Source of the DNA: Actinomycetes bacterium
GTDB taxonomy: Bacteria > Actinomycetota > Acidimicrobiia > Spongiisociales > UBA5794
Direction: 5' to 3'
NCBI GenBank assembly: GCA_023336815.1
Contig: JAMBLJ010000036.1
Span: 13,991 to 77,990 of the forward strand
DNA: 64,000 nucleotides
Shown here: positions 9,978-53,995 of the stretch, piece by piece
Layout of the letters: each line of letters opens with the position of its first letter
Numbering within the stretch: the first letter of the stretch is position 1
The notes under the pieces: generated by a model
The model's input: only the letters and a program-made list of their open reading frames with translations
Databases searched by the model: none
Told to the model about the DNA's origin: nothing
Position numbers and translations under genes: made by a program

Positions 9978-12038
9978 TTATTCCTTGGCAGCTGCCATGG
10001 CCTTGGCGACCAGATGCGAGGGGAGCTCCTGATAGTGGTCGAGTTCTGCGGTGAACCTGCCCCAGCCGTTGGTCAGCGATCTCAGATCGATCGCGTATCG
10101 AAGAATCTCGCTCGATGGGATATCTGCCTCGATCGTCTGGGAACCGTCGGACGCCGTCTGTGAGCCCTGCACAGCACCCCTGCGAGCGGCGATATCCCCC
10201 ATGACGTCACCCTGATACTGATTCGGAACAGTGATGGCGACTTTCGATACCGGCTCGAGAACGATGGGATTTGCACGGTCGAACGCCTCTCTGAAACCTG
10301 CACGCGCGGCGAGCTTGAACGCCATCTCGGAGGAGTCGACGGCGTGGTACTTCCCATCGTCGACGGTGATCTGGATATCCACGACTGGGTAGCCGTGGGA
10401 TCCTCCGTTCTCCATCGTCTCGATCGCGCCCTTCTCGACGGCGGGAATGAACTGTCTTGGGATGCTGCCGCCCTTGACCTTGTCCACGAACTCGAAACCA
10501 GCGCCCCGCTGACGGGGCGAAAGGATGAGATGGCATACGCCGTACTGCCCATGACCGCCCGACTGCTTCTTGTGTTTCCCATCGGCATCCGCGGTTGCGG
10601 TGATCGTTTCCCTGTACGCAACCTTCACCGGCACTTGGTCGACCTGGACACCGAACTTTCGGTCGAGCTTCTCAAGGGTAATCAGGAGATGCGTTTCGCC
10701 AAGACCGCTGAGGAGGGTCTGATGGGTCTCCTGGTTCTGTTCGACCTTCAAGGATGCATCCTCATCGATGATCCGCTGGAGGGAGGTTGACAGCTTGTCG
10801 TCGTCTGACTGGGTCCGTGCAACGATCGCGGTTGCGAGTACGGGTTGGGGTCTGTCGATGCCTGGGACCGTGACCGGGGCGTTTTTCGGGGCGAGCGTAT
10901 CGCCGGTCTTGGTGTCCAGCAGCTTCGCAGCGGCGATGATATCTCCGGCTGGTGCGGCCGACACGAGTGTTGTTTCCTTGCCGAACATCGTCGCGATCTT
11001 GGCGAGTCGTTCGTCCTGACCGGACCGGCCGTTGGTGAGGTGTGTCTCTGGCTTCAGCGTGCCCGACATGACCTTCATCAACGAGATCTGTCCGACATAC
11101 GCATCGGCGAGTGTTTTGAATACGAAGGCGAGGGGTTCCTGGTCAGGGTCCTTTGTTATCTCGATTTCCTCACCGCCTGCGAGAACTCTTGCAGGCGGTC
11201 GATCCTGGGGTGACGGCCCGATCTCGACGATGAAATCAGCGAGCCGGTCAACGGCGATCGGGCCGGTCGCAGAGCCACATACAACGGGGAAGACCGTTGC
11301 GTTCGCGATGCCGAGAGCCATGGTGGCCTCGAGCTCCTGCACACTCGGAATCGTTCCTTCCAGGTAGCCTTCGAGCAGATCGTCGTCTGCAACCACGATC
11401 CCTTCCACGAGGTTGTCGTGAACCTCATGCTCTTTGTCAGCGATCTCCTGGGGAATATCGACAACCTCGGCGGAGCCGGAGTCGTACACGTAGGCCTTGT
11501 CACGAAAGAGCCCAACAACCCCGCGGAAACTCGCCTCAGAGCCGATCGGCAGTTCGATCGGTGCGATACCTGCGCCGAACCTGTCGCGAAGCTCTTTGAG
11601 CGTCCGCTCGAACGATGCACGTTCCTTGTCGAGTTTGTTGATGAAGATCATGCGCGGGACCTGGAGCTTCTCGGCGATCCTCCATGCATACTCTGTCTGC
11701 ACCTCAACGCCCTCGACCGCACTTACGACGAATACGGCGAGGTCCGTGACGCGCAGAGCAGCGTGAACATCCCCAGAAAAATCCGCGTACCCCGGTGTGT
11801 CGATGAGATTGATCTTGTAGCCGAGCCACTCGAAGGGAGCCATTGCCATGGTGACGGTCATCTGGCGGGCATGTTCCTCAGGGTCGTAATCTGTGACGGT
11901 ATTCCCCGCCTCAACCGTTCCGATTCTTCCGATCGCACCGGCACGGAACAGGAGAGCTTCCGCAAGGGTCGTCTTGCCAGCACCGGAGTGACCAACAAGA
12001 GCGACGTTGCGGATCTTCTCAGGAGGGAAGACATTCAC
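9978..12038 (-). CDS. elongation factor G family GTPase (EF-G paralog)
   Basis: G1 motif GHSGAGKTT, DTPGYADF G3 motif, full EF-G domain series to C-terminus; likely start is GTG at 12038 preceded by AGGAG (12050-12046) rather than the ORF-track start at 12125 which abuts the tRNA. Confidence 0.85.
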   Translation of the reverse strand: MNVFPPEKIRNVALVGHSGAGKTTLAEALLFRAGAIGRIGTVEAGNTVTDYDPEEHARQMTVTMAMAPFEWLGYKINLIDTPGYADFSGDVHAALRVTDLAVFVVSAVEGVEVQTEYAWRIAEKLQVPRMIFINKLDKERASFERTLKELRDRFGAGIAPIELPIGSEASFRGVVGLFRDKAYVYDSGSAEVVDIPQEIADKEHEVHDNLVEGIVVADDDLLEGYLEGTIPSVQELEATMALGIANATVFPVVCGSATGPIAVDRLADFIVEIGPSPQDRPPARVLAGGEEIEITKDPDQEPLAFVFKTLADAYVGQISLMKVMSGTLKPETHLTNGRSGQDERLAKIATMFGKETTLVSAAPAGDIIAAAKLLDTKTGDTLAPKNAPVTVPGIDRPQPVLATAIVARTQSDDDKLSTSLQRIIDEDASLKVEQNQETHQTLLSGLGETHLLITLEKLDRKFGVQVDQVPVKVAYRETITATADADGKHKKQSGGHGQYGVCHLILSPRQRGAGFEFVDKVKGGSIPRQFIPAVEKGAIETMENGGSHGYPVVDIQITVDDGKYHAVDSSEMAFKLAARAGFREAFDRANPIVLEPVSKVAITVPNQYQGDVMGDIAARRGAVQGSQTASDGSQTIEADIPSSEILRYAIDLRSLTNGWGRFTAELDHYQELPSHLVAKAMAAAKE

Positions 12039-12125
12039 CAAAGGACTCCTTCTTCGATTGCCCCAAGAATACGCAAGTCCAGAGTGCTGAGCGAAGTTGG
12101 CTGTACGGTATTCTCGTGACAACAA

Positions 12126-12212
12126 GCCCGGGTGGCGAAATCGGCAGACGCGGCGGACTTAAAATCCGCTATCCGAAAGGATGTGTGGGTTCAAGTCCCG
12201 CCCCGGGCACCA
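12126..12212 (+). tRNA. tRNA-Leu (anticodon UAA)
   Basis: 87 nt incl. CCA; acceptor stem GCCCGGG/CCCGGGC, D-arm GCG..CGC, anticodon stem GCGGA/TCCGC with loop CTTAAAA (anticodon TAA), long class-II variable arm, T-arm GGTTCAAGTCC, discriminator A + CCA. Confidence 0.9.
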
Positions 12213-12591: not shown

Positions 12592-12593
12592 GA

Positions 12594-12944: not shown

Positions 12945-12988
12945 GCGCCCTCCAGGTTGAGATCTTTCGCTCCCCATCGTACATCCGG

Positions 12989-14561: not shown

Positions 14562-16154
14562 ATGCTCCTTGTTCGAAATGTCACCATCGAAGCTGGTGCC
14601 CGCACCCTTCTCAGCGATGTTTCCTTCAGTGTGCAGAAGGGCGACAAAGTTGGGCTGGTCGGTCCCAATGGCGCTGGAAAGACCACTCTGATGCGTGTCC
14701 TCGCCGAAGGCGGGCAGCCGAAAGTTGGCAACGTCACACGTGCGGGCAAGATCGGGTACCTCGCCCAGGAGGTACCCATTGCTGAGGTCGACGATGAGTC
14801 GGCACTCGAACGGATACTGACGGCACGTGACATCGGTGCGATAGAGCGCACGATGGAGGCAACCCGTCTTGCGATGGAGGATGCAACCGACGAAGAACGT
14901 GATCGCCTCATCCATCGTTTTTCTCGCCTCGACGACGAGTTCACATCGAAGGGCGGGTACGTGGCCAAGGCTGAGGCGAAGCGCTTCGCAGCAGGGTTAG
15001 GCATCGGTATGGGTGAACTCGATCAGCCGGTAGCAACGATGTCGGGGGGCCAGCGCAGACGTGTCGAACTCGCACGCATCCTGTTCGCCGACACGGAGAC
15101 GCTGATCCTGGATGAGCCGACCAACCATCTGGACCTCGACGCAAAGGCTTGGCTGATGCAGTTCCTTGCGGACTATTCGGGAGGGGTGCTGCTTGTGAGC
15201 CATGACCTCCCGTTGCTCGATGCGGCGATCACATCGGTGCTTGCCGCCGGTGATGGGACGGTCGAGCCGTATCGGGGCAACTACTCGTTCTACGTGACCG
15301 AGCGCGAGCGTCGCCATGAACAACGTCTGGCAGAACGAAAGCGTCAAGATGCTGAGATCGCTCGACTCGAAGAGGGGATCCGACGGTTCAAAGGTTCAAC
15401 AGCCAAGATGGCGCGACGAGCGAGTTCGTGGGAGACGCGGGTGGAGCGTATGCAGGCAGGGCTCGTCGAGACAGCCAGGGAGAACCGTGCGATCAATGTA
15501 ACTTTCCCTCAGCCGGAACCATCGGGCAAGATTCCGTTGCGAGCGGAAAACCTTGCCAAGGCGTATGGGCACAATGTGGTGTTCGTTGACGTCGACGTGA
15601 TCATCGACCGGGGCGATCGGCTGATCATCATGGGACTCAACGGTGCAGGCAAGACCACCCTCCTGCGCATCCTTGCTGGCGTCGAGACACCCGACCTCGG
15701 TGAGGTCGACATCGGCTATCGGGTTTCTGTTGGGTACTACGCACAAGAGCACGAGGACATCCATCCAACCCGTAGTGTGCTTGAACACATGAAGGAGGTC
15801 TCAGGGCTTCCCGATCGTGAATTGCGGGGGATACTTGGACTCTTTCTCCTTGCAGACAAGATCGATCAGGAGGCTGGCACATTGTCAGGTGGGGAGCGCA
15901 CGAAGCTCGCACTGGCGAGAATCGTCGTTGGCAGACACAACGTGCTGCTCCTCGATGAGCCGACCAACAACCTCGATCCGCAGGCGAAAGAGGCACTTCT
16001 CATGGCACTCCAACGATACGAGGGGACCGTCATCCTTGTGAGCCACGATGCCCATTTCGTGGCGCAGCTCGGGCCCACGAGAGCGATCATCATGCCCGAT
16101 GGCGATGCCGACTATTTCGATCAATCGATGCTGGAGCTCGTATCGCTGGCGTGA
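14562..16154 (+). CDS. ABC-F family ATPase (tandem ABC domains, no TM domain)
   Basis: ATG at 14562 (ORF track start 14370 overlaps GGDEF-EAL gene); two Walker A motifs GPNGAGKTTL and GLNGAGKTTL, two LSGG signature motifs (MSGGQRRRV, LSGGERTKL), linker between domains. Confidence 0.9.
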   Translation: MLLVRNVTIEAGARTLLSDVSFSVQKGDKVGLVGPNGAGKTTLMRVLAEGGQPKVGNVTRAGKIGYLAQEVPIAEVDDESALERILTARDIGAIERTMEATRLAMEDATDEERDRLIHRFSRLDDEFTSKGGYVAKAEAKRFAAGLGIGMGELDQPVATMSGGQRRRVELARILFADTETLILDEPTNHLDLDAKAWLMQFLADYSGGVLLVSHDLPLLDAAITSVLAAGDGTVEPYRGNYSFYVTERERRHEQRLAERKRQDAEIARLEEGIRRFKGSTAKMARRASSWETRVERMQAGLVETARENRAINVTFPQPEPSGKIPLRAENLAKAYGHNVVFVDVDVIIDRGDRLIIMGLNGAGKTTLLRILAGVETPDLGEVDIGYRVSVGYYAQEHEDIHPTRSVLEHMKEVSGLPDRELRGILGLFLLADKIDQEAGTLSGGERTKLALARIVVGRHNVLLLDEPTNNLDPQAKEALLMALQRYEGTVILVSHDAHFVAQLGPTRAIIMPDGDADYFDQSMLELVSLA

Positions 16155-16168
16155 TCGGTAGGTGACCT

Positions 16169-16750: not shown

Positions 16751-16831
16751 CGTGCAGTCCCTCGGGTTGTGACGTTTCCAACAGGATGTTAAGGAGTTGC
16801 TAAGGCGTCCACCATCTGTTTAATTGTTCGT

Positions 16832-19767: not shown

Positions 19768-22524
19768 ATGGCAACGACCACCGTTTCGACAACCATCACC
19801 GACCCGCCAGAGCGGTACCCGGCCGAATGGGAACAGGATGCCGTGCTCAAGGACGGCGGAACGATCAGGATCCGACCGATCGTTCCCGAGGATTCCGACG
19901 CCCTGCAGGAATTCGTCCAGAACATGTCGACACAGAGCAGCTACTTCCGGTTCTTTCGTGTCAAACGTGAACTCGACGCGGACGAGCTCAAGACATTCAC
20001 CCAGGTCGACTACAAGGCCGACATGGCATTCATCGGGATCGTCGACGGAGAACTCGTAGGCGTTGGTAGGTACAACGCCCTCGAAGATGACCCATCGACC
20101 GCGGAGATAGCGTTCACCGTTCGTGACTCGTTTCAAGGGATGGGTATCGGTACGTTGCTCGTCTTTCGGATCTCCGCATATGCGCGTGCGCTCGGGATCG
20201 AACGCTTCAGAGCATTTCTCCTTGCCGATAACCATGCGATGATGCGGGTATTTCGCAACGCTGGTTTCGCACTCAACCGTGAAATCGACGAAGGTGTCTA
20301 CACGGTTGAGATCCCAACAGAAGAGTCCGACTCTGTTCTTGCTGCCGAAGGTAAGGCTGAGCAGATCTCGACGGCAGCGAGCCTCATGCCTCTCTTCTAC
20401 CCCCACTCCATCGCCGTTATCGGTGCGAGTAGGAACAGGGCGTCCATCGGCGGTCGACTATTCAACAACATCCTCAACGCGGACTTCATGGGTCCGCTCT
20501 ATCCGGTGAATCCAAGGACATCGGTTGTTCGGTCGATACCGACCTTCGCCTCCGTCAAGGACATACCGGGACCGATTGACCTTGCTTTCATCGTTGTGCC
20601 GTCCCAGCATGTCGCTGATGTCGTGAGAGAATGTGCGGAGAAGGGTGTCCGGTCGCTCGTTGTGATCTCCGCCGGATTCTCCGAGGTCGGGGGTTCCGGT
20701 GCGGAGGCTGAGGCCGAGATTCTCGACATCGTGAGGACGGCAGGGATGCGGATGGTCGGACCGAACTGTATGGGTCTGCTGAACACCGATCCGGTTGTCA
20801 ACCTCGATGGTCAGTTCGGTCCGATCATGCCCCCACGAGGGAACGTGGCGATGCTCTCCCAGAGTGGTGCGTTAGGTCTTGCCATACTCGACTACGCAAC
20901 CGAGCTTGGTATCGGTATCTCGACGTTCGTGTCGGTGGGAAACAAGGCGGACGTTTCAGGCAACGACTTGCTGCTGTACTGGGAAGAGGACCCGAACACT
21001 GATGTCGTTCTCCTCTACCTCGAGTCCTTTGGTAACCCCCGCCGATTCTCGAGAATCGCCAGGCGCATTGGTATGAAGAAGCCGATCGTCGTCGTGAAGT
21101 CGGGCCGAACAGCCGCAGGAGCTCGGGCGGCGTCGAGTCACACGGGGTCACTCGCAAGCCTCGACACGGCGGTGGATGCGCTCTTTGATCAGGCTGGTGT
21201 CATTCGCGTCGACACGCTAGAGGAACTCTTCAATGTCGCATCGCTTTTGTCGAGCCAACCACTGCCACGAGGTCGCAACGTTGGGGTGATCACCAATGCC
21301 GGGGGTCCCGCGATCCTGGCGGTCGACGCTCTCGAGTCTCAGGGGCTGCACGTCCCCCATCTTTCGGACGAACTCCAGAAACAGTTGCGAGAGTTCCTGT
21401 CAGCCGATGCAGCGGTGTTCAATCCAATCGACATGATCGCCGCGGCTGGTCCTGAGGAGTACAAGAAGACGATCCAGGCATTGCTCGCAAGTGACGAGAT
21501 TGATGCGCTCATCACCGTCTTCATCCCCGCTTCAGACGTGGGTGTCCCCGAGACGGCAACTGCGATTCGTGAGGCCGCGGAGGAATCGAGTGGCGAGAAA
21601 GTCTTCCTCAGCGTCTACATGAACTCATCGGGAGTTCCAACGGAGCTCTCGTCGGCGACTGCCCAGTTTCCGGTATTCCCGTTCCCGGAGCGTGCGGCAA
21701 TGGCCCTGCGCAAGGCGGTCGAATACGCCGAGTGGCGTGAGAAGCCTGCCGGCACGTTCGTGCGCCCCGAAGGTATCGACAAGACCGAGGCTCGCAGGAT
21801 CCTCGACGCTGCGTGTGAGGGCCTCCCCCCGGATGGCGAGTGGCTTGCCCCCGAAGCTGTGGATGGGATCCTCACTGCATACGGTCTCCCTGTCCCGCGA
21901 ACGGGGGTTGTTCATTCGCTCGAAGAGGCACGTGCGTTCGCGGAGAGCATCAGTGGACCGGTCGTGTTGAAGGTGATCTCGCCATCGGCTGTCCATAAGT
22001 CCGATGTTGGTGGTGTTGCTCTGGACGTGAACGGCCCTGAGGAAGTGAAGGCTGCGTACGAACAGGTCACATCTGCGGTCCCCGACCCCGAAGGTGTGCT
22101 GGTTCAAGAGTTCGTGGTCGGTGGCCATGAGGTGCTCATCGGCATGGTGGAGGATCCGAACTTCGGGCCACTTGTCGTGTTCGGTCTCGGGGGTGTGTTC
22201 GTCGAATTGATCGGCGATGTTGCCTTCCGCATCCATCCGTTGACCGATCATGATGCGGCCGAGATGATCGCAGATGTGAAGTCGGCACGGTTGCTCGAGG
22301 GATACCGGGGTGGCGACAAGGGTGATATCGATGCTGTTATTGACGCCCTGCTAAGGGTGTCCGCAATGATCGAGGATCTTCCGGAGGTCTTCGAGATGGA
22401 TCTCAATCCGGTGAAAGTCGGCACACCGGGCTCAGGTGTGCGTATCGTGGACGCACGGATAAAGGTTCGCCCGATAGAACACAGCTGGATCCCGTCTCGT
22501 ACGGACCTGCCATCGATGTTGTAA
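19768..22524 (+). CDS. bifunctional GNAT acetyltransferase / NDP-forming acyl-CoA synthetase-like protein (Pat-type protein lysine acetyltransferase, actinobacterial domain order)
   Basis: 918 aa; N-terminal GNAT (ELVGVGRYN...FQGMGIGTLL), then CoA-binding domain (HSIAVIGASRNRASIGGRLFNN, VVISAGFSE), CoA-ligase and ATP-grasp domains (VVLKVISPSAVHKSDVGGVAL). Confidence 0.82.
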   Translation: MATTTVSTTITDPPERYPAEWEQDAVLKDGGTIRIRPIVPEDSDALQEFVQNMSTQSSYFRFFRVKRELDADELKTFTQVDYKADMAFIGIVDGELVGVGRYNALEDDPSTAEIAFTVRDSFQGMGIGTLLVFRISAYARALGIERFRAFLLADNHAMMRVFRNAGFALNREIDEGVYTVEIPTEESDSVLAAEGKAEQISTAASLMPLFYPHSIAVIGASRNRASIGGRLFNNILNADFMGPLYPVNPRTSVVRSIPTFASVKDIPGPIDLAFIVVPSQHVADVVRECAEKGVRSLVVISAGFSEVGGSGAEAEAEILDIVRTAGMRMVGPNCMGLLNTDPVVNLDGQFGPIMPPRGNVAMLSQSGALGLAILDYATELGIGISTFVSVGNKADVSGNDLLLYWEEDPNTDVVLLYLESFGNPRRFSRIARRIGMKKPIVVVKSGRTAAGARAASSHTGSLASLDTAVDALFDQAGVIRVDTLEELFNVASLLSSQPLPRGRNVGVITNAGGPAILAVDALESQGLHVPHLSDELQKQLREFLSADAAVFNPIDMIAAAGPEEYKKTIQALLASDEIDALITVFIPASDVGVPETATAIREAAEESSGEKVFLSVYMNSSGVPTELSSATAQFPVFPFPERAAMALRKAVEYAEWREKPAGTFVRPEGIDKTEARRILDAACEGLPPDGEWLAPEAVDGILTAYGLPVPRTGVVHSLEEARAFAESISGPVVLKVISPSAVHKSDVGGVALDVNGPEEVKAAYEQVTSAVPDPEGVLVQEFVVGGHEVLIGMVEDPNFGPLVVFGLGGVFVELIGDVAFRIHPLTDHDAAEMIADVKSARLLEGYRGGDKGDIDAVIDALLRVSAMIEDLPEVFEMDLNPVKVGTPGSGVRIVDARIKVRPIEHSWIPSRTDLPSML

Positions 22525-26973: not shown

Positions 26974-27005
26974 CGATCACCAGAATACCGGGACATGGGA
27001 ACGGC

Positions 27006-27875: not shown

Positions 27876-27882
27876 CGTTCGG

Positions 27883-28830
27883 TCAGAACTGCCAGGGGAA
27901 CGCCGAGTAGTCCTGGTCCCGCTTCTCGAGAAATGCATCGCGTCCTTCTTGGGCTTCGGCCGTTCCATAGGCGAGACGCGTCGCCTCTCCGGCGAACAGC
28001 TGCTGGCCAACCATGCCGTCGTCTGGCAGATTGAATGCGTACTTCAACATCTTCTGTGCCGTCGGGCTCTTTGCGGTGATCTCCGCTGCCCATTCGAGTG
28101 CCGTCGCCTCGAGGTCGGCGTGCGGGATGGCAGCATTGACCATACCCATCGCAACAGCCTCGCTCGCCGAGTAGTTCCTGCCAAGGAAGAAGATCTCGCG
28201 TGCGCGCTTCTGCCCAACCTGTCGCGCAAGGAGCGCGGATCCGTATCCACCGTCAAAACTTGCGACATCGGCGTCTGTTTGTTTGAAGACAGCGTGCTCC
28301 GATGAGGCGAGGGTGAGATCACACACAACATGCAAGCTGTGGCCGCCGCCGACTGCCCAGCCAGGTACCACAGCGATGACGACCTTCGGCATAAACCGGA
28401 TCAGACGCTGGACCTCAAGAATATGGAGACGCCCCAGCCGTGCTGGATCGACGCCATCATCCCCTTCGTACTTGTATCCGTCCTTGCCGCGGATCCGTTG
28501 GTCGCCACCAGAACAGAAAGCCCAGCCGCCGTCCTTGGGTGAGGGGCCGTTGCCGGTCAGGAGTACACACCCAACGTCGGGAGTCATCCTTGCGTGGTCG
28601 AGGACGCGGTAGAGCTCGTCAACGGTTCCAGGACGAAAGGCGTTCCTGACCTCAGGTCGATCGAACGCTATCCGTACAGCGCGGACATCCTTTGCCCTGT
28701 GGTAAGTGATATCGGTGAGGTCGAATCCCTCGACGGGATCCCACATGTTCGGATCGAAGATATCGGATACCACAGTTCCTCCCGTGGTGATTGCACCGGC
28801 GATACTGTAGTAACCGATGGCGAACGACAC
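27883..28830 (-). CDS. menB: 1,4-dihydroxy-2-naphthoyl-CoA synthase (crotonase fold)
   Basis: Crotonase-fold MenB signatures RIAFDRPEVRNAFRP, LTGNGPSPKDGGWAFCSGGDQ, VVPGWAVGGGHSLHVVCDLT; N-terminus may start at an internal Met. Confidence 0.88.
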   Translation of the reverse strand: MSFAIGYYSIAGAITTGGTVVSDIFDPNMWDPVEGFDLTDITYHRAKDVRAVRIAFDRPEVRNAFRPGTVDELYRVLDHARMTPDVGCVLLTGNGPSPKDGGWAFCSGGDQRIRGKDGYKYEGDDGVDPARLGRLHILEVQRLIRFMPKVVIAVVPGWAVGGGHSLHVVCDLTLASSEHAVFKQTDADVASFDGGYGSALLARQVGQKRAREIFFLGRNYSASEAVAMGMVNAAIPHADLEATALEWAAEITAKSPTAQKMLKYAFNLPDDGMVGQQLFAGEATRLAYGTAEAQEGRDAFLEKRDQDYSAFPWQF

Positions 28831-30100
28831 CCCATACGGTTGGCTCGAAGCAACTGCCGAATCGTCCCCGGATGCGCCGGCTCTGTTCTTTCCTGCAGGG
28901 GTCGTGTCGTACCGCGAGCTTCATACGCAGGTGATGGCAAGGGTGCGCTCGCTACGCAGTGAGATCGTCGAGGGGTCCATCGTGCCTGCAGTGATGCAAC
29001 TCGACCTTCCGTCGATTATCGAGATGCTTGCGATCATGCGATGTGGTGGCGTGCTGCTTCCGTATAGGTCGTTACGACCCGGCTTTCCATCCATCGAACG
29101 TGATGGGGCTGCTGTGTGTATCCCAACATCTGGCTCAAGCGGCGAATCCCAGCTCGTGCCGCTGAGCTACACGAACATCAGCGCATCGGTCGCTGCGTCG
29201 CGCGAGAGACTCAATACGGGCCCCGACGACCGGTGGCTGGCGACACTGCCACTCGATCATGTCGGAGGGCTGTCTGTCCTGTGGCGATCCCTTGAGGCAG
29301 GTGGCGCAGCGGTCGTATCGCCGTTCGGTCCCTTGCTCCCTGGATTTATCGACGATGTCAGACCGACGATCGCATCTCTCGTCCCCACCATGGTCCATCG
29401 TCTGCTCGACTGGTCTCCCGATTCCCTTGCGTCCATCGGATCGATCCTTACCGGTGGTGCTGGCACGTCGTCCGGCTTGTTGGATAGGGCTCACACGTGT
29501 GGTGCATCGATCATCGTGACGTATGGTCTCACGGAAGCCTCCTCCCAGGTCGCAACAGCAATACCAGGATCGCCTGAGCGATCGTCGGTCGTCGTCGGAC
29601 CACCCCTTGACGGTTTCTCGATACGTATCCTCGGTCCTCACGGTGAGGTAGGCCCTGGCGAACAGGGAAGGATCGAGATCGATGGACCTGCCGTCTTCAA
29701 CGGATATCTCGGTCAACCGCCCCGATCTGAGCCGTTCCTGACCTCCGATGTCGGATTCGTCACAGAGGATGGTTCACTCGGTGTGGTTGGACGAAGTGAC
29801 GACATCATCGTTGTTGGCGGTCGCAACGTGAGCACACGCGCTCTTGGCGACATGATCGTTGCTACGGGTCTGGTACGGGATGCGATGGTTGTTGGCATCC
29901 CGGATCCCGAATGGGGCTCCATACCTGTGGCCATCGTCGACGTCGCTCCGCCGAATTCGCTACGAGCGGTCGAGGAAGCTCTCGCCGAGATAGGAGAGAC
30001 GGGCCACGCACCCCACCGCTGGATAGAGGGTGGCGTGCCGTTACTCCCGAATGGCAAACACGATCGAGTCTCCGCTCGGCGGATGTTCGGAGCGGGGTAG
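28817..30100 (+). CDS. menE: o-succinylbenzoate--CoA ligase (AMP-binding)
   Basis: AMP-binding motif TSGSSGESQLV, YGLTEASS, C-terminal K of adenylation fold (LLPNGKHDR); men cluster context. Confidence 0.78.
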   Translation: MANDTPYGWLEATAESSPDAPALFFPAGVVSYRELHTQVMARVRSLRSEIVEGSIVPAVMQLDLPSIIEMLAIMRCGGVLLPYRSLRPGFPSIERDGAAVCIPTSGSSGESQLVPLSYTNISASVAASRERLNTGPDDRWLATLPLDHVGGLSVLWRSLEAGGAAVVSPFGPLLPGFIDDVRPTIASLVPTMVHRLLDWSPDSLASIGSILTGGAGTSSGLLDRAHTCGASIIVTYGLTEASSQVATAIPGSPERSSVVVGPPLDGFSIRILGPHGEVGPGEQGRIEIDGPAVFNGYLGQPPRSEPFLTSDVGFVTEDGSLGVVGRSDDIIVVGGRNVSTRALGDMIVATGLVRDAMVVGIPDPEWGSIPVAIVDVAPPNSLRAVEEALAEIGETGHAPHRWIEGGVPLLPNGKHDRVSARRMFGAG

Positions 30101-33625: not shown

Positions 33626-34537
33626 GTGAAACGAGCGATCGACTTCGGTATGGCGGCGTACTCCTCCACGATGGAGCAGTGGAGGCGCGGTGACCCGATG
33701 CTCATGGGTGCAGCTATCGCTTACAACTCGCTGTTCGCCCTCGTCCCGCTTGCGATAGCTTTCCTGTCGATCGTTGCCCTGTTCGACCGATCGAATAGCG
33801 CGTTGTTCAAGCTGGTCGACCTCATCACGCAGACATTTCCTCCGGAGATATCGACATTCCTGGTCGATCTGCTCCAGCAGTCCAACCAGTTCGTGAGCGA
33901 CGACTCGGCGCTTCTCCTTACGGTCTCGATACTCATCGCCCTGTGGTCCGGGTCACGGGCCGTGTACGCAGCGCAGAAGGCGCTCAGGCTTGTCGACGGC
34001 GGCGAAGACGAACGCGGGTACATCCGTGGACGGCTCACGGGAGTCGTGGTCACCGTGGGGGCTGGAGCGTCCGTGATGGTCGGCTACGGGTTATTGCTCC
34101 TTGGCGAGGATGCATGGAATGCGATCGCATCGTTCCTCGGTCTCGGACGTACGGGGTACGCACAAGCAGTGGTATCCGTCCTCGCTCTTCTGTGGATGTT
34201 CGGCTTGTTGTGGGTCTTATACAGGTTCGGACCGCCGGTTCCTGTTGAACATGCTGGGGTATTGGCAGGGATCGTCACGACTGTGCTGGTTCTTGGTACA
34301 TGGCTGGCCTTCAATCTGCTCCCCGGTGGTACGAACGAGTCCCTTGCCGTGTTCGGATCACTTGGATTACTCCTGATCTGGCTCTACTTCGTCGGGATCG
34401 CGGTAGTGGCTGCACCGATCGTAGTTCTCGGCATCTGGGCCGCGTGGAGCGATCTGACCGACCGGTACCCTGTTGAAGATGGTGGAAAGTCAGGCGAAAC
34501 TCAGGGATCTGAAGACGGGACTGCAACTCCTTCTTAA
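33626..34537 (+). CDS. YihY/BrkB family membrane protein
   Basis: N-terminus GAAIAYNSLFALVPLAIAFLSI typical of YihY/BrkB (formerly RNase BN) family; 6 predicted TM helices. Confidence 0.75.
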   Translation: MKRAIDFGMAAYSSTMEQWRRGDPMLMGAAIAYNSLFALVPLAIAFLSIVALFDRSNSALFKLVDLITQTFPPEISTFLVDLLQQSNQFVSDDSALLLTVSILIALWSGSRAVYAAQKALRLVDGGEDERGYIRGRLTGVVVTVGAGASVMVGYGLLLLGEDAWNAIASFLGLGRTGYAQAVVSVLALLWMFGLLWVLYRFGPPVPVEHAGVLAGIVTTVLVLGTWLAFNLLPGGTNESLAVFGSLGLLLIWLYFVGIAVVAAPIVVLGIWAAWSDLTDRYPVEDGGKSGETQGSEDGTATPS

Positions 34538-36236
34538 GATTCTGAGCGGGTATCGATCGATCGCCCTCATCTCCATCCTTGGAGCGTTGATCTGGATGGC
34601 GATGATCGTCGTTATTCCATATCTTGTTGGATCGATCGTCGACGAGGCAGTGACTGCACGAGATACATCGGCGATATGGCCGATTCTGGGAATCATGCTC
34701 GTTGCGGGTGCCATCCAGGCCCTCGGCATAGCGATGCGCCGGTACTTTGGCTTCAAACTGTCCTATCGGGCTGAGGCAGATGTCAGAAATAGGATCTTCG
34801 CCCATATCCAGCGGATGGCGTTCAACTTCCATGACACGACGTCAACGGGTGAGCTCATGGCCCGTGCATCCTCAGATCTGTCACAGCTGCGGCTGATCTT
34901 GTCGATGCTCCCGATCACGCTTGCGAACCTTGCGATGTTCCTCGTCGTCTCGGCTGTTCTCATCGTGATCGATCCTGTACTCGGTCTTACCGCGTCGTTG
35001 ATGGTGCCGGCCCTTCTGCTCACGTCTGGCCGCTTCGCGAGCCGCGTTGTCGGTTTCTCGTTCGATCTCCAGGCAAGGCTTTCTGCACTGTCCCACGTCG
35101 TTGAAGAGTCGATTTCGGGCATCGAAGTGGTCAAGAGTTACGGGCAGGAGTCTCGCCAACTCGACAGGCTGGAGGAGAAGGCTGAGGTCATCTATGACTC
35201 GTCCATGTCCATGGCGCGAGAGCGAGCGATTCACCGCCCCCTGTTCGAGATCATTCCCGCGCTTGGAACCGTTGCAGTCCTCGCCGTTGGAGGCATCCGC
35301 GTTGTCGATGGCGCCATCACCATCGGTGAATTCGTCTCGTTCACGCAGTACCTCGCGGTGATGGTCCTCCCTCTCATGATCACTGGCTGGTTCTTTGCAA
35401 ACCTTCCTCGTTCCGCCGCCGCGGCGTCGAGGATCGACATTCTTCTCGAAACCGCACCCGAGATCGCAGACCCGAGGCGACCGGTGCACCTGCCTCAGGG
35501 ACCGGGCCAGATCGAACTCAGACATGTGTCGTTCGCCTACCCGGACGGGACCGCAGTTCTCGAAGATGTCTCGCTGACGATCCCTGGAGGTACTTCCGTA
35601 GGGCTCGTTGGTGTCACAGGATCGGGAAAGTCCACGATTGCTCACCTGATACCGCGGTTCTATGACGTTTCTGATGGGTCGATTCTCCTCGATGGGATCG
35701 ATATCCGTGAGATCAGCCTTGACCAGCTCCGGAGCGAGGTTTCCGTTGTCTTCCAGGAGACGTTCCTCTTCTCCGCGTCCGTCGTCGACAACATTCGCGT
35801 CGGGGATGCGCTCGCATCCGATGAGCAGGTGCGATCGGCTGCCCGGCTTGCGCGAGCACACGACTTCATCTGCGCGATGCCAGATGGATACGACACGGTG
35901 GTGGGTGAGCGTGGAGCGACCCTGTCTGGGGGTCAGCGGCAGCGCGTCAGTCTCGCCCGCGGTGTGGTGCGTGATCCGAGGATCCTGATCCTCGACGATG
36001 CCACCTCGTCTGTCGATGCCGTTGTCGAGGCTGAGATCCAGGAGGCTCTCCGCCAGGTTATGTCAGGTAGGACGACGTTAATCGTTGCGCACCGGACATC
36101 GACACTGGCGCTCGTTGACAATGTAGCGTTCATCGAAGACGGCAGGCTCGTAGCGTTCGGACCCCACGACACCTTGCTGAGGGAAATCCCGCGATACACC
36201 GAGGTGCTCGCGGCGGAAGAGTCGGTTGTTGGATGA
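34473..36236 (+). CDS. ABC transporter permease/ATP-binding protein (type I exporter half-transporter)
   Basis: 6-TM domain then NBD with Walker A GVTGSGKST, signature LSGGQRQR, Walker B ILILDDATS, H-loop AHR. Confidence 0.9.
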   Translation: MKMVESQAKLRDLKTGLQLLLKILSGYRSIALISILGALIWMAMIVVIPYLVGSIVDEAVTARDTSAIWPILGIMLVAGAIQALGIAMRRYFGFKLSYRAEADVRNRIFAHIQRMAFNFHDTTSTGELMARASSDLSQLRLILSMLPITLANLAMFLVVSAVLIVIDPVLGLTASLMVPALLLTSGRFASRVVGFSFDLQARLSALSHVVEESISGIEVVKSYGQESRQLDRLEEKAEVIYDSSMSMARERAIHRPLFEIIPALGTVAVLAVGGIRVVDGAITIGEFVSFTQYLAVMVLPLMITGWFFANLPRSAAAASRIDILLETAPEIADPRRPVHLPQGPGQIELRHVSFAYPDGTAVLEDVSLTIPGGTSVGLVGVTGSGKSTIAHLIPRFYDVSDGSILLDGIDIREISLDQLRSEVSVVFQETFLFSASVVDNIRVGDALASDEQVRSAARLARAHDFICAMPDGYDTVVGERGATLSGGQRQRVSLARGVVRDPRILILDDATSSVDAVVEAEIQEALRQVMSGRTTLIVAHRTSTLALVDNVAFIEDGRLVAFGPHDTLLREIPRYTEVLAAEESVVG

Positions 36237-41054: not shown

Positions 41055-41071
41055 CCTGCAACGGTTTCTTC

Positions 41072-41234: not shown

Positions 41235-44200
41235 ATGAGCACAAGATTCCCGCTGTACAACCCGCTGGAGCACCACGATGCGTGTGGTGTCGGGTTCATC
41301 GTTGACCGGTCGGCTACAGCATCGCACCGTATCGTTCGCCAGGGTGTCGAGTGTTTGCACAATCTCGACCATCGCGGTGCCCGTTCTCAGGATGGAACGG
41401 GTGATGGAGCAGGGATGATGACGAGGATCCCGTTTCGTCTCATCGAACGAGATCTTCGCACGAAGGCGATCGCTGTCCCCGACCGCAGCCGTATCGGTGT
41501 GATCACTGCGTTCCTCGACCCTGACGAAGCCGTGGGGGCTCGAAAGGCAGTAGAACGAGCCGTCGCTGACAACGACATGACCACGCTCACGTGGCGCCCC
41601 GTTCCAATCGATCCAAACATTCTGTCGGAAACTGCACGTGCATCGATGCCCGTGATCGAACAAGCGATCATCGAGTCATCCGAAGTCATATCCTCGTCAG
41701 ACCGGTTCGAGCGGTCGCTGTTCCTCGCTCGCAAGTCCATCGAGAACCGCCCGGTTGCGGGATGTGAGATCGTTTCGGCGTCAAGCCGAACGATCGTCTA
41801 TAAAGGGTTGTTCACCGCAGACACGATCGAAGCCTTCTACTGGGATCTGCGGGACCCGGTGTACGAGTCCGATTTCGTCATATTCCACCAGCGGTATTCA
41901 ACGAACACGAAACCTTCCTGGGCCCTGGCGCAGCCATTCAGGATGCTCGCCCATAACGGCGAGATCAACACAGTGCAGGGCAACAGATCGTCCATGGCTG
42001 CACGGTCGAACGACCTCGTCGAAGGGGTGTGGGGGACGCGTGTCTCTGAACTCGCCCCTCTCGTGCGATCGGGGATCGGTAGTGACTCAGCAAGCCTGGA
42101 CGAGGCTGTCGAGGTGCTTGTTCGCTCCGGGCGAGACCTCACTCATGTGAAGGAGATGCTGATACCCCAGGCGTGGGAGAACGTTCCCGATCTCGATCCG
42201 AAGTTGCAGGCGTTCTACGAGTACCACGCATTCCTTACCGAGCCGTGGGACGGACCGGCGGCTATCGCTGCAAGCGATGGGCTCACACTCATCGCAGGTC
42301 TCGATCGCAACGGTTTACGTCCAGCGCGGTGGACGGTCACACCAGATACTGTGCTTATTGCGTCGGAAGCCGGCATCGCTCCTGAGGTCGAGGTGCTCGC
42401 CACTGATACGGGCCAGCTTGGGCCAGGTGAGGTCATCGAAGTGGATCTCGCCGACGGGACGCTTCGATTCTCTGACCATGTCAAACGTCGGCTTGCGGCG
42501 AAAGCTCCCTACGCGGATTGGATCACAACGAACACGCTCTACGTTCGTGATCCGTTCGACGACCTCCAGGATGACCGCTTTGATGCCGAAGCCCTGGCGC
42601 GTGTGTTCGGCTACACCGCCGAGGAGCGCAGGCTCCTGCTCGAACCGATGGCCGGGGGTATCGATCCCATCCTGTCGATGGGTCACGACTCCGGTCTTGC
42701 GGTCCTTTCCGAGTTCCCACAGCGGCTTCCGCGGTTCTTTCACCAAGCGTTCGCTCAGGTTACGAACCCGCCGATGGATCCGATCCGAGAGAAACTTGTC
42801 ATGTCGTTGCGAACCTATGTTGGCCGGCACGGGTCGCTGCTGGAGGAAACCGAACAACAGGCGCACATGGTGGAACTGTCATCTCCGATCCTGTCGGATG
42901 CGGACGTCGAGGAGCTGTGCACGCTCACTGACCCGGCGTTCCGGTCTAAGTGGTTTGATATCCTTTTCGACCCCTCAGCTGGATCGATGGTTGACCGACT
43001 GGACGAGATCTGTTCTGCGGTCGAGGACGCTGTTCGCTCAGGGGTGTCGATCATCGTGCTGAGCGACAGGGGAACCACTCCCGAGCTCGCCCCCATCCCC
43101 ATCGTGCTTGCTGTTGGCGCTGTTCACCACAGGCTCATCGACACGGGTCTTCGGCTCCATGCGTCGATCATCGCCGTTTCGGGAGAACCGCGCGATGCGC
43201 ATGACATCGCGTGTTGCGTCGGGTTCGGTGCTGCCGCGGTGAATCCGTATCTTGCTATCGAGCAGGTTCGGGCACTCGCAGTAGAAGGCGCCATCACGCT
43301 TGGCGCCGTCGAGGCACAGGAGAACTACCGGTCAAGCCTTGAGAATGGCTTGCTGAAGGTCATGTCGAAGATGGGGATCTGCACCGTCAAATCGTACCGG
43401 TCGTCGGAGCTGTTCGAGGCGATCGGGCTTGATCCTGAGGTCTGTCAACTTGCATTCCGCAACGTGCACAGCAGGGTTGGCGGCCGCGGTCTCGCAGCGA
43501 TCCAGGACGATGCCGTCGCGCGTCACTCCAGGTACGTGAGCGAGGAAGCCGAGGTTGAGGGGTACTACAAACACCGCAGGGGCGGGATGCCGCATGTGGC
43601 CGCACCGATGGCAGTCCTGGCACTTCAGAAGGCTGTAAGAAGTGGTGACCAGATCGATTTCGAGCGATATCTGGATCTGGTTCAGGAAAGTCGCCCGGCC
43701 CTCGAACTCAGAGACCTGCTCGAGATAATGCCGTTCGGCCCCCCCGTTGCTGTTGAGAACGTCGAACCGATCGAGTCGATCATGCGTAGGTTCGTTACGG
43801 CAGCCATGTCGATGGGTGCGGTATCGAAGGAGGTCCACGAGACCCTCGCCGCGGCCATGCACAGGATCGGTGGCCGGTCGAATTCTGGTGAGGGCGGAGA
43901 GGATCCCTCGCGATTCGCTACGGACCGAAACTCCGTGATCAAGCAGGTTGCGAGCGGGAGATTTGGTGTGACTCCCGGATACCTCGCTTCTGCCGACGAG
44001 ATCCAGATCAAGATGGCACAGGGATCGAAACCTGGTGAAGGGGGCCAGCTGCCTGGGCACAAAGTATCTGTCGAGATCGCACGGCTCAGACACACCGAGC
44101 CGGGTATCACACTCATCTCGCCACCGCCCCACCATGACATCTACTCGATCGAGGACCTCGCCCAACTGATATATGACCTCAAGACGTTCAAGCCGACGGC

Positions 44201-45644
44201 GCGTGTTGCGGTAAAGCTCGTATCGGGGCCTGGTATCGGAACGATCGCTGTTGGTGTCGCCAAGGCATCTGCAGACGGGATCACCGTCTCCGGCAATGCC
44301 GGGGGCACGGGGGCATCGCCTGTCGTGTCGATGAAACACGCAGGGTCGCCATGGGAACTCGGTCTCGCTGAGGCGCATCAATCGCTCGTAGCCAACGGTC
44401 TGCGTTCTGCGGTCAGCGTCGAAACGGATGGCGGCTTGCGAACGGGACGTGACATCGTGGTCGCTGCCCTGCTCGGTGCTGATCGGTTCGGGTTCGGCAC
44501 CCTGCCCCTGCTTGCTCTGGGGTGCAAGATGGTGCGCCAATGCCACGAGAACACCTGCCCTGTCGGGATCGCAACACAACGCGACGATCTGCGAGCCAAG
44601 TACACCGGTTCCGTGGAACAGGTCGTCGCCCTGTTCGAGTTGATAGCGAGCGACGTGCGCTCGATCCTGGCCAGGATGGGCGCACGATCCCTCGACTCGA
44701 TCATCGGTCGCGGTGATCTGCTCGCGGCAACTGACGAAGGCCCGGGATCAGACCTCGCCTCGATGCTGGTGAGCGCACGGTCCGAGACGGATCGACGTTT
44801 CCGCGAACTCCCCGCGTCACCGCTTGGCGAGCAGTTGGCCTTCGCTGGTCGCTCGGTGCTCGATGGGAGGGATTCGCTCTCTGTTGCGTATCCCATCAGG
44901 AACACGGATCGGGCTGTAGGAACGAGACTCTCTGGTGAGATCGCAGCACGTCACGGAGATGCCGGATTGGTCGACCGGCGCTTCACTGTCCGTCTATCAG
45001 GTACAGCCGGTCAGTCGTTCGGTGCGTTCCTTGTGGAGGGTGTACATCTGGACCTCGATGGTGTTGCAAACGACTACGTTGGCAAAGGGATGGCAGGCGG
45101 TTCGATCGTGATCCGACCATTTACGGATTCACCCTCGATCCCGCACGGTGGTGGAAATGCCTGTCTCTATGGAGCCACGGGTGGCGAGTTGTTCATCGCC
45201 GGCAGCGTTGGTCAACGCTTCGCGGTCCGTAACTCCGGAGCCACCGCTGTCGTGGAGGGTGCGTCTGACCATGCGTGTGAATACATGACGGGGGGCAAGA
45301 TCGTCGTTCTCGGCCCTGCCGGTCGCAACATCGCTGCGGGTATGAGCGGGGGAGTGTTGTTTCTGTACGACGAAGCGATGACGATCAAGGCGCACATGTC
45401 CGACACAGCGCCTGCTGCAACGAGACTCGCGGCGACCGACCGTGACGAGCTACGGCTTCTCTTGATGGAGCACCTGGCCCGCACCGGGTCACGTGCAGCG
45501 GCAGCGCTTCTCGGTGGCTGGCACCAAGCCCAGGACCGATTCTGGGTGGTGAGACCAAAGGCGCCTCTGACTGATGGTGCGTTGGATGTCACGGAGGTTG
45601 AAGCGCAGAAATCAGACACCAGACACCAGACGACAGACACATAG
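41235..45644 (+). CDS. gltB: glutamate synthase large subunit (GOGAT alpha)
   Basis: 1469 aa; N-terminal Ntn amidotransferase Cys (HDACGVGF), central domain, FMN domain (GEGGEDPSRF...), C-terminal GXGXG beta-helix domain; ATG at 41235 chosen over TTG at 41208. Confidence 0.95.
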   Translation: MSTRFPLYNPLEHHDACGVGFIVDRSATASHRIVRQGVECLHNLDHRGARSQDGTGDGAGMMTRIPFRLIERDLRTKAIAVPDRSRIGVITAFLDPDEAVGARKAVERAVADNDMTTLTWRPVPIDPNILSETARASMPVIEQAIIESSEVISSSDRFERSLFLARKSIENRPVAGCEIVSASSRTIVYKGLFTADTIEAFYWDLRDPVYESDFVIFHQRYSTNTKPSWALAQPFRMLAHNGEINTVQGNRSSMAARSNDLVEGVWGTRVSELAPLVRSGIGSDSASLDEAVEVLVRSGRDLTHVKEMLIPQAWENVPDLDPKLQAFYEYHAFLTEPWDGPAAIAASDGLTLIAGLDRNGLRPARWTVTPDTVLIASEAGIAPEVEVLATDTGQLGPGEVIEVDLADGTLRFSDHVKRRLAAKAPYADWITTNTLYVRDPFDDLQDDRFDAEALARVFGYTAEERRLLLEPMAGGIDPILSMGHDSGLAVLSEFPQRLPRFFHQAFAQVTNPPMDPIREKLVMSLRTYVGRHGSLLEETEQQAHMVELSSPILSDADVEELCTLTDPAFRSKWFDILFDPSAGSMVDRLDEICSAVEDAVRSGVSIIVLSDRGTTPELAPIPIVLAVGAVHHRLIDTGLRLHASIIAVSGEPRDAHDIACCVGFGAAAVNPYLAIEQVRALAVEGAITLGAVEAQENYRSSLENGLLKVMSKMGICTVKSYRSSELFEAIGLDPEVCQLAFRNVHSRVGGRGLAAIQDDAVARHSRYVSEEAEVEGYYKHRRGGMPHVAAPMAVLALQKAVRSGDQIDFERYLDLVQESRPALELRDLLEIMPFGPPVAVENVEPIESIMRRFVTAAMSMGAVSKEVHETLAAAMHRIGGRSNSGEGGEDPSRFATDRNSVIKQVASGRFGVTPGYLASADEIQIKMAQGSKPGEGGQLPGHKVSVEIARLRHTEPGITLISPPPHHDIYSIEDLAQLIYDLKTFKPTARVAVKLVSGPGIGTIAVGVAKASADGITVSGNAGGTGASPVVSMKHAGSPWELGLAEAHQSLVANGLRSAVSVETDGGLRTGRDIVVAALLGADRFGFGTLPLLALGCKMVRQCHENTCPVGIATQRDDLRAKYTGSVEQVVALFELIASDVRSILARMGARSLDSIIGRGDLLAATDEGPGSDLASMLVSARSETDRRFRELPASPLGEQLAFAGRSVLDGRDSLSVAYPIRNTDRAVGTRLSGEIAARHGDAGLVDRRFTVRLSGTAGQSFGAFLVEGVHLDLDGVANDYVGKGMAGGSIVIRPFTDSPSIPHGGGNACLYGATGGELFIAGSVGQRFAVRNSGATAVVEGASDHACEYMTGGKIVVLGPAGRNIAAGMSGGVLFLYDEAMTIKAHMSDTAPAATRLAATDRDELRLLLMEHLARTGSRAAAALLGGWHQAQDRFWVVRPKAPLTDGALDVTEVEAQKSDTRHQTTDT

Positions 45645-51193: not shown

Positions 51194-51940
51194 TCATCCT
51201 GCACCAAGGCTTCGACCACCGCACACGTACAGGGTCTGTCCTGTCACGTAGGAAGACTCATCCGCAGCGAAGAAGAGTGCAGCGTTTCCGATATCGCTCG
51301 AGGTCCCAACACGCTTGGCAGGGATCGTTTTGATAAGTCGTTCCTGGACCTCCTCCTTCAATCCACGGAACAACGGTGTGTCCACCAGGGCTGGTGCGAT
51401 AGCGTTGGCCGTGACACCGTAGCGAGCCATCTCGAGTGCCAGAGATCGGGTGAGGCTGATCACAGCACCCTTGGATGCGGCGTAGTTGGCCTGGCCCGGC
51501 CCACCGAGCCACGCCCTCGATGAGATGTTGACGATCCTGCCGTATTCCTGCTCCATCATGTGTGGCGCAGCCGCCCGACACGTGAGGAACTGTGACTTGA
51601 GATTGACCTGAAGGACGGTGTCCCAGTCCTCCTCGCTCATCTTCGCTAACCATCCGTCCCGAGCCATACCTACGTTGTTGACGAGAATATCGATGCGTCC
51701 GTACGAGTCGATAGCAGCCTGGATGAGCGAGTTCGCACCTGCTGACATCGACACATCTGCGGCATGGCCTGTGACTTCGTGCCCAGCGTTGATGAACTCA
51801 TCGACGACCTCGTCCACCTTGTCAGGGAACAGATCGTTGATGACCACCTTTGCACCCGCGGCACCGAGCGTCTCAGCGATTCCTTTGCCAATGCCCTGAC
51901 CCGATCCTGTGACGACCGCAACCCGATCTTTGACGTTCAT
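51194..51940 (-). CDS. SDR family oxidoreductase (FabG/3-hydroxyacyl-CoA dehydrogenase-like)
   Basis: ATG at 51940 with GAGGAAAACA RBS; TGSGQGIGKGIA, NNVG, catalytic YAASK; ORF track N-terminal 184-aa extension is spurious. Confidence 0.85.
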   Translation of the reverse strand: MNVKDRVAVVTGSGQGIGKGIAETLGAAGAKVVINDLFPDKVDEVVDEFINAGHEVTGHAADVSMSAGANSLIQAAIDSYGRIDILVNNVGMARDGWLAKMSEEDWDTVLQVNLKSQFLTCRAAAPHMMEQEYGRIVNISSRAWLGGPGQANYAASKGAVISLTRSLALEMARYGVTANAIAPALVDTPLFRGLKEEVQERLIKTIPAKRVGTSSDIGNAALFFAADESSYVTGQTLYVCGGRSLGAG

Positions 51941-52793: not shown

Positions 52794-53995
52794 GTCTTTG
52801 ACGCAGCCATCACCACGCCGTCCTCGTTGAGCTGCTCGATATCGGATGGTGTGAACCCGAATTCGTGGAGGATCTCATTGGTGTGTTGGCCAGCGATTGG
52901 GGGTGCTGGCCCTGTCGGGTCACAGGGTGTGTGTGAGAAGCGCCCGGGGAAGCCAGGAGAGCGAACCTCTCCCGTGGAGGGATGGTCGACCGTGACGATC
53001 GATCCACCCTGTGTGATGTGATCTTCGGCCATCAGTTCTGGATAGGACAGCAGTGGTCCGCAGAGGATGTCCGCTTGATCGAGGGCCTCGACCCAGTCAG
53101 CGGTACATCGTTCAGAAAAGAGTGGTTCCACGATCTCTCTGAGGGCAGCACGATGGTTGACCCGCTTCTCGTTCGAATCGAATCGATCGTCGACAGCGAG
53201 ATCGGGAATTCCCAGGACCCCGCAGAGCGCCACCCATCGTTTCGGGGTGTAGGCGGCGATCATGACATATCCGTCCTTCGTCCGGTATGCCTCGTTCGGC
53301 GCGGCGTAGGGCGCAGCACTGCCGAGCCGCTGTGGCGACTTCCCGCTGGCCAAGTACATCGAAAGCGGGACAACCTGATACGAGAGCAGAGCATCGAGGA
53401 GCGACACATCGATTCGCTGGCCGCCGCCTGTGCGCTCTCTCGCGTAGAGGGCTGCCAGGATCGATTGGGAAGCGAACACCCCGCCAGCCATGTCGGCCGC
53501 GGGTACACCAACCTTCACTGGAGGACCGTCCGGTGTTCCCGTCACACTCATGATGCCGCCCATTGCCTGTGCAACACCATCGACGCCAGGGCGATCACGC
53601 CACGGCCCCGATTGGCCGAACGCGGATATCGCTGCATAGATCGCCATGGGATTGGCTTTGGCGATGGCGTCGTAGCCGACCCCGAGCCTGTCGGCGACAC
53701 CGGGCCGGAAACTCTCGAGCACGATGTCGGATCGTTCGGCGAGACGCAATACGACTCCTGTTCCGCCATGTCGTTTGAGATCGACAACGATGCTTCGCTT
53801 GTTCCGATTCATACCGAGGAACGCAGCTGCGACATCACCAACGAATGGTGGTCCCAACCCTCGTCCCCATTCACCGCCTGGCGGTTCCACCTTGATGATG
53901 GTGGCGCCGAGGTCACCGAGATGCATCGCACACGTTGGACCGGCCGCTCCCTGTGAGAGGTCGAGAACGGTGACGCCATCAAGTGCTCCGCGCAT
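52790..53995 (-). CDS. CoA-transferase family III (CaiB/BaiF) protein
   Basis: [39 protein letters not shown]-terminal signature of family III CoA-transferases; ATGA-type overlaps on both sides. Confidence 0.88.

Follow-up and report, generated by a model that had tools for sequence, protein, structure and literature searches.

The leucine tRNA gene studied here, which lies in the window (the whole stretch of 64,000 nucleotides of DNA that was analysed), is in all likelihood the ordinary housekeeping tRNA-Leu(UAA) of an Acidimicrobiia bacterium with about 60% GC. As such it is an already known kind of gene and a standard component of translation. The sequence-only reading had seen in it a bldA-type regulatory tRNA, that is, a sole UUA decoder whose limited or delayed supply gates a regulon of regulatory or adaptive genes that contain TTA. 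We consider such a gate very improbable, since TTA codons are distributed across everyday metabolic genes, show no preference for regulators or for gene starts and occupy no conserved sites. On the evidence within these 64 kb, TTA is spread over housekeeping genes, which is the distribution that the same reading had itself set against its proposal. The bldA analogy fails to carry over to a 60% GC Acidimicrobiia genome, and this is a useful negative result. The sample comprises 64 kb of the host genome and, from high-GC relatives, about 40,000 codons of orthologous genes.

The tRNA gene and its host

ARAGORN made a single tRNA call in the 64-kb window, tRNA-Leu(UAA) at 12126..12212 (+). The Rfam model RF00005 matches positions 12126-12209 over its full length with 57.3 bits (gathering threshold 29; E = 9.8e-10), and the anticodon was read off the sequence:

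12160-12162, plus strand: anticodon TAA (UAA), within the 7-nt loop CTTAAAA at 12158-12164, with U33

Coordinates, identity and the anticodon loop CTTAAAA with UAA had been proposed from the letters alone, and ARAGORN, Rfam and the sequence agree on all of them. The tRNA belongs to class II and has a long variable arm (ATCC-GAAA-GGAT), the discriminator A73 and an encoded 3' CCA. A36-A37-A38 is the usual context for modification by MiaA and is shared in general by tRNAs for UNN codons. When the tRNA-Leu(UAA) from the window was aligned with those from five relatives, identity per column was 89%, and the acceptor and anticodon stems were invariant among the six sequences. Compensatory double changes were detected in the variable arm, where an A-U pair is replaced by G-C, and in the T-stem, where G-C is replaced by A-U and U-A by C-G. 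That pairing has been maintained by compensatory changes in six lineages argues for function. Called by both ARAGORN and Rfam, the gene is real and structurally constrained, and it is probably functional. A scan of 161 loci for further leucine tRNAs, especially one with anticodon CAA, recovered, apart from the UAA copies in synteny, just one UAG tRNA, which is unrelated.

The GC content of the window is 59.7%, with every 2-kb bin between 0.57 and 0.62 and a coding GC3 of 0.669, and the value of about 68% GC put forward earlier for this genome does not hold for this DNA. In a scan with one genome per species, the product of the EF-G paralog gene that adjoins the tRNA gene displayed 75-90% identity to proteins of uncultured Acidimicrobiia MAGs and only about 41% identity to those of Mycobacterium, Streptacidiphilus and all others. 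Because the EF-G paralog is closest to Acidimicrobiia MAGs, we assign the host to the uncultured Acidimicrobiia (Actinomycetota), with about 60% GC, which places it far from Streptomyces and outside the Streptomycineae. Host sequence was also sought in public collections; for one protein the search returned a single Logan contig of 1.8 kb (SRR15671255), and for enolase it returned nothing.

The divergent EF-G gene and the neighbourhood of the tRNA

An EF-G paralog lies head-to-head with the tRNA-Leu(UAA) gene, as had been noticed at first reading, and signalling-type genes follow on the other side. The features concerned are:

9978..12038, minus strand: EF-G family GTPase, paralog-type (Pfam GTP_EFTU, EF-G_D2, EFG_III, EFG_IV, EFG_C)
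12039..12125, no strand: divergent intergenic spacer of 87 nt between the EF-G paralog and the tRNA, with GTG 12038 taken as the start
12989-14497: GGDEF-EAL gene (Pfam)
16832-17512: OmpR-type response regulator (Pfam)
17509-18822: histidine kinase (Pfam)

The EF-G gene was queried as 9978-12044 (-) and its start was set at GTG 12038; this in-frame GTG follows a ribosome-binding site, GGAG, and is the best candidate for the start codon. The gene passes the NCBIfam subfamily model NF009381 'elongation factor G' (855.6 versus a cutoff of 583) and falls below the cutoffs of the EF-G2 and TIGR00484 equivalogs. As it is located outside the ribosomal-protein (str) operon context, 'paralog' is a fair description. 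An alignment of the spacer between the EF-G and tRNA genes reveals a block, CCAAG..TACGCA, that is conserved among the relatives. A scan for sigma-70 promoters and intrinsic terminators around the tRNA gene detected no canonical site in the spacer and no terminator. At 12109-12114 the spacer contains TATTCT, a -10-like sequence of the TANNNT type, and the matching position reads TACCCT in two relatives; this is a putative promoter element of the tRNA gene, a TANNNT-type guess that was missed by the consensus scan.

In all five Acidimicrobiia relatives (L001-L005), tRNA-Leu(taa) is divergent from the EF-G ortholog, and the spacer measures about 80-90 nt in four of them and about 530 nt in L005. 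One proposal is that the shared 87-nt region puts a specialised translocase and the rare-codon tRNA under joint control, perhaps as a module for translation under stress. The retention of the divergent pair in 5/5 relatives whose EF-G proteins are 75-90% identical, the conserved block in the spacer and the presence of an ABC-F translation factor close by in the window genome are in line with this proposal. However, the five relatives constitute one narrow clade in which everything from Mfd to Pat is syntenic, so that shared ancestry explains the adjacency, and the long spacer in L005 indicates that tight promoter sharing was not kept. Seven Mycobacterium-type or Streptacidiphilus EF-G2 loci were checked and none has an adjacent tRNA-Leu, and the ABC-F gene has no counterpart at the matching position in L002 and L005. 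To our knowledge, no mechanism links EF-G paralogs to tRNA-Leu, and we regard coupling of the two genes as very unlikely. Equally little should be expected of a clade-specific module in which the UUA tRNA and the EF-G paralog, divergent and co-regulated, would tune the roughly 15% of mRNAs containing UUA under particular conditions, as a rare-codon throttle independent of the bldA of Streptomyces. Since the whole region is syntenic and the spacer of L005 reaches about 530 nt, the pairing is explained by inheritance; it is a mild curiosity conserved in the clade, and the verdict of an ordinary housekeeping tRNA is unchanged by it.

According to Pfam, the genes upstream encode Mfd, a PPIase, MazG, enolase, DivIC/FtsB, a DUF501 protein and Ppx/GppA, and on the 3' side of the tRNA gene there are two small PLDc_N/SHOCT membrane proteins, the GGDEF-EAL protein, the ABC-F ATPase, the response regulator, the histidine kinase and an ArsR regulator. 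The earlier remark on signalling-type neighbours is borne out by the GGDEF-EAL, OmpR-type response regulator and histidine kinase genes, all of which are near the tRNA gene. From an epimerase and Mfd to the Pat-like and CBS-BON genes, the neighbourhood is collinear in the relatives. A search of the window for a repeat of the tRNA 3' end gave no second copy, no integrase or phage genes were found by Pfam among the neighbours of the tRNA gene, and in 2-kb bins the composition is flat around it, without a step. On account of the collinear flanks and the lack of a 3'-end repeat, an integrase and a compositional step, the tRNA gene is a resident chromosomal gene and neither cargo of an island nor the remnant of an attachment site. 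Although tRNA genes are common integration sites, and although the ABC-F gene, located some 2.3 kb further downstream, is missing at the matching position in two relatives, a mobile-element link, in which the tRNA gene would either be a hotspot for integration or be carried by a phage or island to supplement a rare codon, has next to no probability in view of these same results, and the integration-site hypothesis was rejected because no 3'-end repeat occurs in the window and synteny is conserved across the tRNA gene and both flanks.

Some further observations concern the genes of this neighbourhood. The two small PLDc_N membrane proteins, one of which carries a SHOCT tail, are encoded in tandem at 12235-12977 and are convergent with the tRNA gene; only 22 nt separate the 3' end of the tRNA from the first stop codon of the pair, and no terminator is predicted there. 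The interval 14562-16831, bounded by the GGDEF-EAL gene and the response regulator gene, contains the ABC-F ATPase gene and, adjacent to it, a stretch of 680 nt with only unsupported ORFs, 16169-16750 (-) and 16242-16772 (+). From its absence at the matching position in L002 and L005, the ABC-F gene may represent a lineage-specific insertion or loss. The ORF of the PPIase (rotamase) at 4116-5315, in its longest form, overlaps the 3' end of the Mfd gene by about 280 nt and its start is uncertain; the segment 4398-5245 has a composition atypical for coding in the competing frames.

TTA codons in the window and in relatives

For a census of codons, a self-trained gene finder based on codon usage was dropped, as it mis-called at least the GGDEF-EAL gene, and a Pfam-curated list was used instead, comprising 53 genes and 20,115 codons, with each ORF supported by Pfam. 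Some gene starts are approximate, and all 11 TTA codons found are inside or beside Pfam-matched regions. In these 53 genes, TTA is the rarest sense codon (11/20,115; 0.55 per 1000), and the next one, CTA, with 45 occurrences, is 4-fold commoner. The expectation that UUA would be very rare in this DNA was correct, and being by far the least used sense codon is a feature that it would share with a codon under bldA-type control. Leucine is encoded mostly by CTC (49%), CTG (23%) and CTT (17%), with TTG at 8.5%; UUG amounts to roughly 7.7 per 1000 codons. Other codons ending in A are common (GGA is preferred to GGG, and ATA and ATT are used about equally), and the dominant leucine codon is CTC, not CTG. 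Eight of the 53 genes (15%), mostly with metabolic or transport functions, carry the TTA codons, whose coordinates were verified:

14562..16154, plus strand: ABC-F ATPase, TTA at 14997-14999 (Pfam; NF000355, 388 versus 380)
19768..22524, plus strand: Pat-like GNAT plus ADP-forming acyl-CoA synthetase, TTA at 20872-20874 (Pfam)
28817..30100, plus strand: MenE-like AMP-binding ligase, TTA at 29072-29074 and 30041-30043 (Pfam; best NCBIfam model menE, below cutoff)
33626..34537, plus strand: BrkB/YihY-family membrane protein, three TTA, at 34091, 34217 and 34367 (Pfam)
34479..36236, plus strand: ABC exporter, fused permease and ATPase, TTA at 36078-36080 (Pfam)
41235..45644, plus strand: glutamate synthase large subunit GltB, TTA at 42315-42317 (NF008730, 1612.7 versus 1047)
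51194..51940, minus strand: FabG-like short-chain dehydrogenase, TTA at 51647-51649 (Pfam)
53979..54605, minus strand: TetR-family regulator, TTA at 54552-54554, codon 18 (Pfam); the only TTA-bearing regulator in the window

Six genes were counted as regulators, those for the GGDEF-EAL protein, the response regulator, the histidine kinase, the ArsR, the PAS-LuxR and the TetR protein. One of these six contains TTA, compared to 7 of the 47 other genes (Fisher p = 1.0, a comparison of low power with six regulators), and per codon the frequencies are 1 in 1715 for regulators and 10 in 18453 for the other genes. Given 64 kb and six regulators, a modest enrichment of TTA in regulators may exist. The relative positions of the 11 TTA codons are uniform along the genes (mean 0.50; KS p = 0.95), without any bias to the 5' end. 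The BrkB/YihY gene alone accounts for three of the 11 TTAs, where 0.17 are expected (P = 0.036 after correction for 53 genes).

In favour of the bldA-type reading, the TetR regulator has its TTA within the DNA-binding domain, the BrkB/YihY gene contains three TTAs, and the tRNA gene is situated beside genes for c-di-GMP and two-component signalling. However, the signalling genes adjoining the tRNA gene are all free of TTA, and neither enrichment in regulators nor a bias towards gene starts was detected. The 15% of window genes with TTA stand against 147 chromosomal genes in Streptomyces coelicolor (PMC4255298), and the carriers include GltB, the ABC-F ATPase, the MenE-like ligase and the FabG-like SDR in the window, as well as SufB and MazG in relatives. 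Furthermore, the host belongs to the Acidimicrobiia and not to the clade in which the bldA-adpA circuit arose, and no TTA site is conserved in any high-GC ortholog, as detailed below.

With respect to the regions around some of the carriers, the BrkB/YihY protein is only 43% identical to its counterpart in L082, while the neighbouring genes reach 70-78%, and the GC profile of the BrkB/YihY gene is typical of the window. The MenE-like ligase gene belongs to a menaquinone cluster at 23983-30100 with genes for MenF-like (chorismate-binding), MenD-like (TPP-dependent), UbiA-type MenA and MenB proteins. MenB passes its NCBIfam equivalog and adjoins the MenE-like ligase. The match of this ligase to the AMP-binding profile is limited to the C-terminal two-thirds, and its menE score stays under the cutoff. 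At 54602-59798, two adjacent sets of 2-oxoacid:ferredoxin oxidoreductase subunits (POR gamma, TPP_C, POR_N, POR gamma-Fer4, IOR-alpha-like) adjoin genes for CoA-transferase, ECH, SDR, HMGL-like, thiolase and PrpF proteins, and this region resembles a catabolic island for organic acids or acyl-CoA compounds, under the TetR regulator. Long ORFs lacking Pfam support are present at 30912-32000 (-), 41031-41663 (-) and 63004-63879 (-). The latter two are probably spurious, each overlapping a Pfam-supported gene on the opposite strand, and the first one occupies a gap, matches no family and, if real, would have one in-frame TTA.

The rarity of TTA was then compared with what base composition predicts. 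A naive position-specific expectation amounts to 117 TTA codons versus the 11 observed, about 10-fold fewer. For TpA, an odds ratio of 0.45 was obtained over the whole window. Of all trinucleotides, TTA/TAA falls furthest below expectation, on either strand and in every frame: it reaches 0.39 of the number predicted by a first-order Markov model, and the two strands contain only 87 and 65 copies. In the census genes, TTR makes up 9% of the leucine codons and CTA/(CTA+CTG) is 0.098, and multiplying the TTR share by this ratio predicts 16.2 TTA codons versus the 11 observed (p = 0.10). Because the depletion is not frame-specific and because 11 is not significantly below 16.2, the rarity of TTA is largely compositional, reflecting avoidance of TpA and preference for CTN over TTR rather than a regulatory code. 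Some selection against TTA, for example through low abundance of the tRNA, is plausible.

In order to follow individual TTA sites, metagenomic loci anchored on GltB were collected and the orthologs aligned. For the window TTAs in genes with alignable orthologs (Pat-like, GltB, BrkB and ABC exporter), none was conserved in any high-GC relative. Codon 369 of the Pat-like gene, TTA in the window, is CTC in both orthologs, L002 and L005. At codon 361 of GltB, a conserved leucine is encoded by CTT, CTG, CTC, CTA or TTG in 15/15 relatives with GC > 0.59, and TTA occurs at this site only in one genome of 35% GC, where TTA is common. The GltB loci of 35% GC (L095 and L096) were left out of the conservation argument, TTA being a common codon there. 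The three TTAs of the BrkB gene, none of them conserved in L082, and the TTA of the ABC exporter gene align to other amino acids in relatives. The orthologous genes of the high-GC GltB-anchored relatives contain 10 TTA in about 28,600 codons, and the relatives' own rare TTAs are located at different sites, in GltB, SufB, MazG, an ABC exporter and a small PLDc_N protein. Such a pattern is expected from mutation and drift acting on a synonymous codon that is disfavoured, and it suggests that the TTA sites are not a maintained regulatory signal.

For the ordinary housekeeping tRNA-Leu(UAA), general tRNA biology suggests the following course. The gene would probably be transcribed from a promoter in the 87-nt spacer shared with the EF-G paralog, the transcript would be processed by RNase P, and LeuRS would charge the tRNA by way of A73 and the class II architecture. 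The charged tRNA would decode UUA and, by wobble of a modified U34, probably also UUG. UUA persists in ordinary metabolic genes at roughly 0.5 per 1000 codons, at sites that are labile in evolution. Because about 15% of the genes contain TTA, among them one for central nitrogen assimilation and probably one for the synthesis of menaquinone, tRNA-Leu(UAA) is most likely needed constitutively for general translation, and a developmental gate is unlikely. By analogy with other organisms, the TTA-bearing GltB and MenE-like genes would be essential.

Comparison with known leucine tRNAs

The canonical bacterial tRNA-Leu(UAA) (E. coli leuZ / tRNA-Leu4) has, like the tRNA from the window, a cloverleaf with a long variable arm and the anticodon UAA, and both have U33, A36-A37-A38, G18G19, the T-loop TTCAAGT, A73 and an encoded CCA. 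Compared to this canonical tRNA, nothing unusual was detected in the gene described here, which is simply a new sequence from an uncultured Acidimicrobiia lineage.

With bldA of Streptomyces, the tRNA gene of the window shares the isoacceptor and the anticodon, and in both cases the host is actinobacterial and TTA is the rarest sense codon; this likeness was judged by isoacceptor, anticodon and TTA pattern. Streptomyces genomes exceed 70% GC, whereas the window host has 60%. S. coelicolor has 147 chromosomal genes with TTA (PMC4255298), whereas in the window about 15% of the genes are affected, core metabolic ones included, and the TTA codons of the window show no regulator enrichment, 5' bias or conserved sites, unlike those of the targets of Streptomyces bldA. 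In a review that surveyed 100 actinobacterial genomes, adpA is the one gene carrying TTA in all streptomycetes, the interplay of bldA and adpA is reported to have arisen within the Streptomycineae, and bldA probably has no developmental role beyond this group (PMC4255298). Our negative result agrees with this published comparative work, in which the TTA/bldA circuit is an innovation of the Streptomycineae. A functional bldA tRNA depends on modification by MiaA/MiaB (PMC10732093). No AraC-family domain was found by Pfam in the ORFs of the window, and a literature search for Acidimicrobiia together with bldA found no paper linking them.

A uniform long-ORF method was applied to all loci compared as a benchmark. 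By this method, the frequency of TTA per 1000 codons is 0.62 in the window, 0.29-0.56 in its two nearest relatives, 0.18-2.2 in more than 70 Mycobacterium-type loci and 0.10 in one locus of the Streptomycetaceae (Streptacidiphilus). It is evident that the TTA frequency of the window matches that of the Mycobacterium loci and not that of the Streptomycetaceae locus. In Mycobacterium-type loci, the tRNA gene is not beside the EF-G2 gene, unlike in the window, and the window reaches a similar rarity of TTA at a lower GC3 (0.67 versus about 0.78 in the Mycobacterium-type loci) by strong avoidance of TpA. Outside the Streptomycineae, TTA codons are without 5' bias and are found in conserved growth-associated genes (PMC4255298). 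The window, with about 0.6 TTA per 1000 codons and TTA in genes of this kind, resembles Mycobacterium and other actinobacteria outside the Streptomycineae in its tRNA-Leu(UAA) and behaves as they do (PMC4255298).
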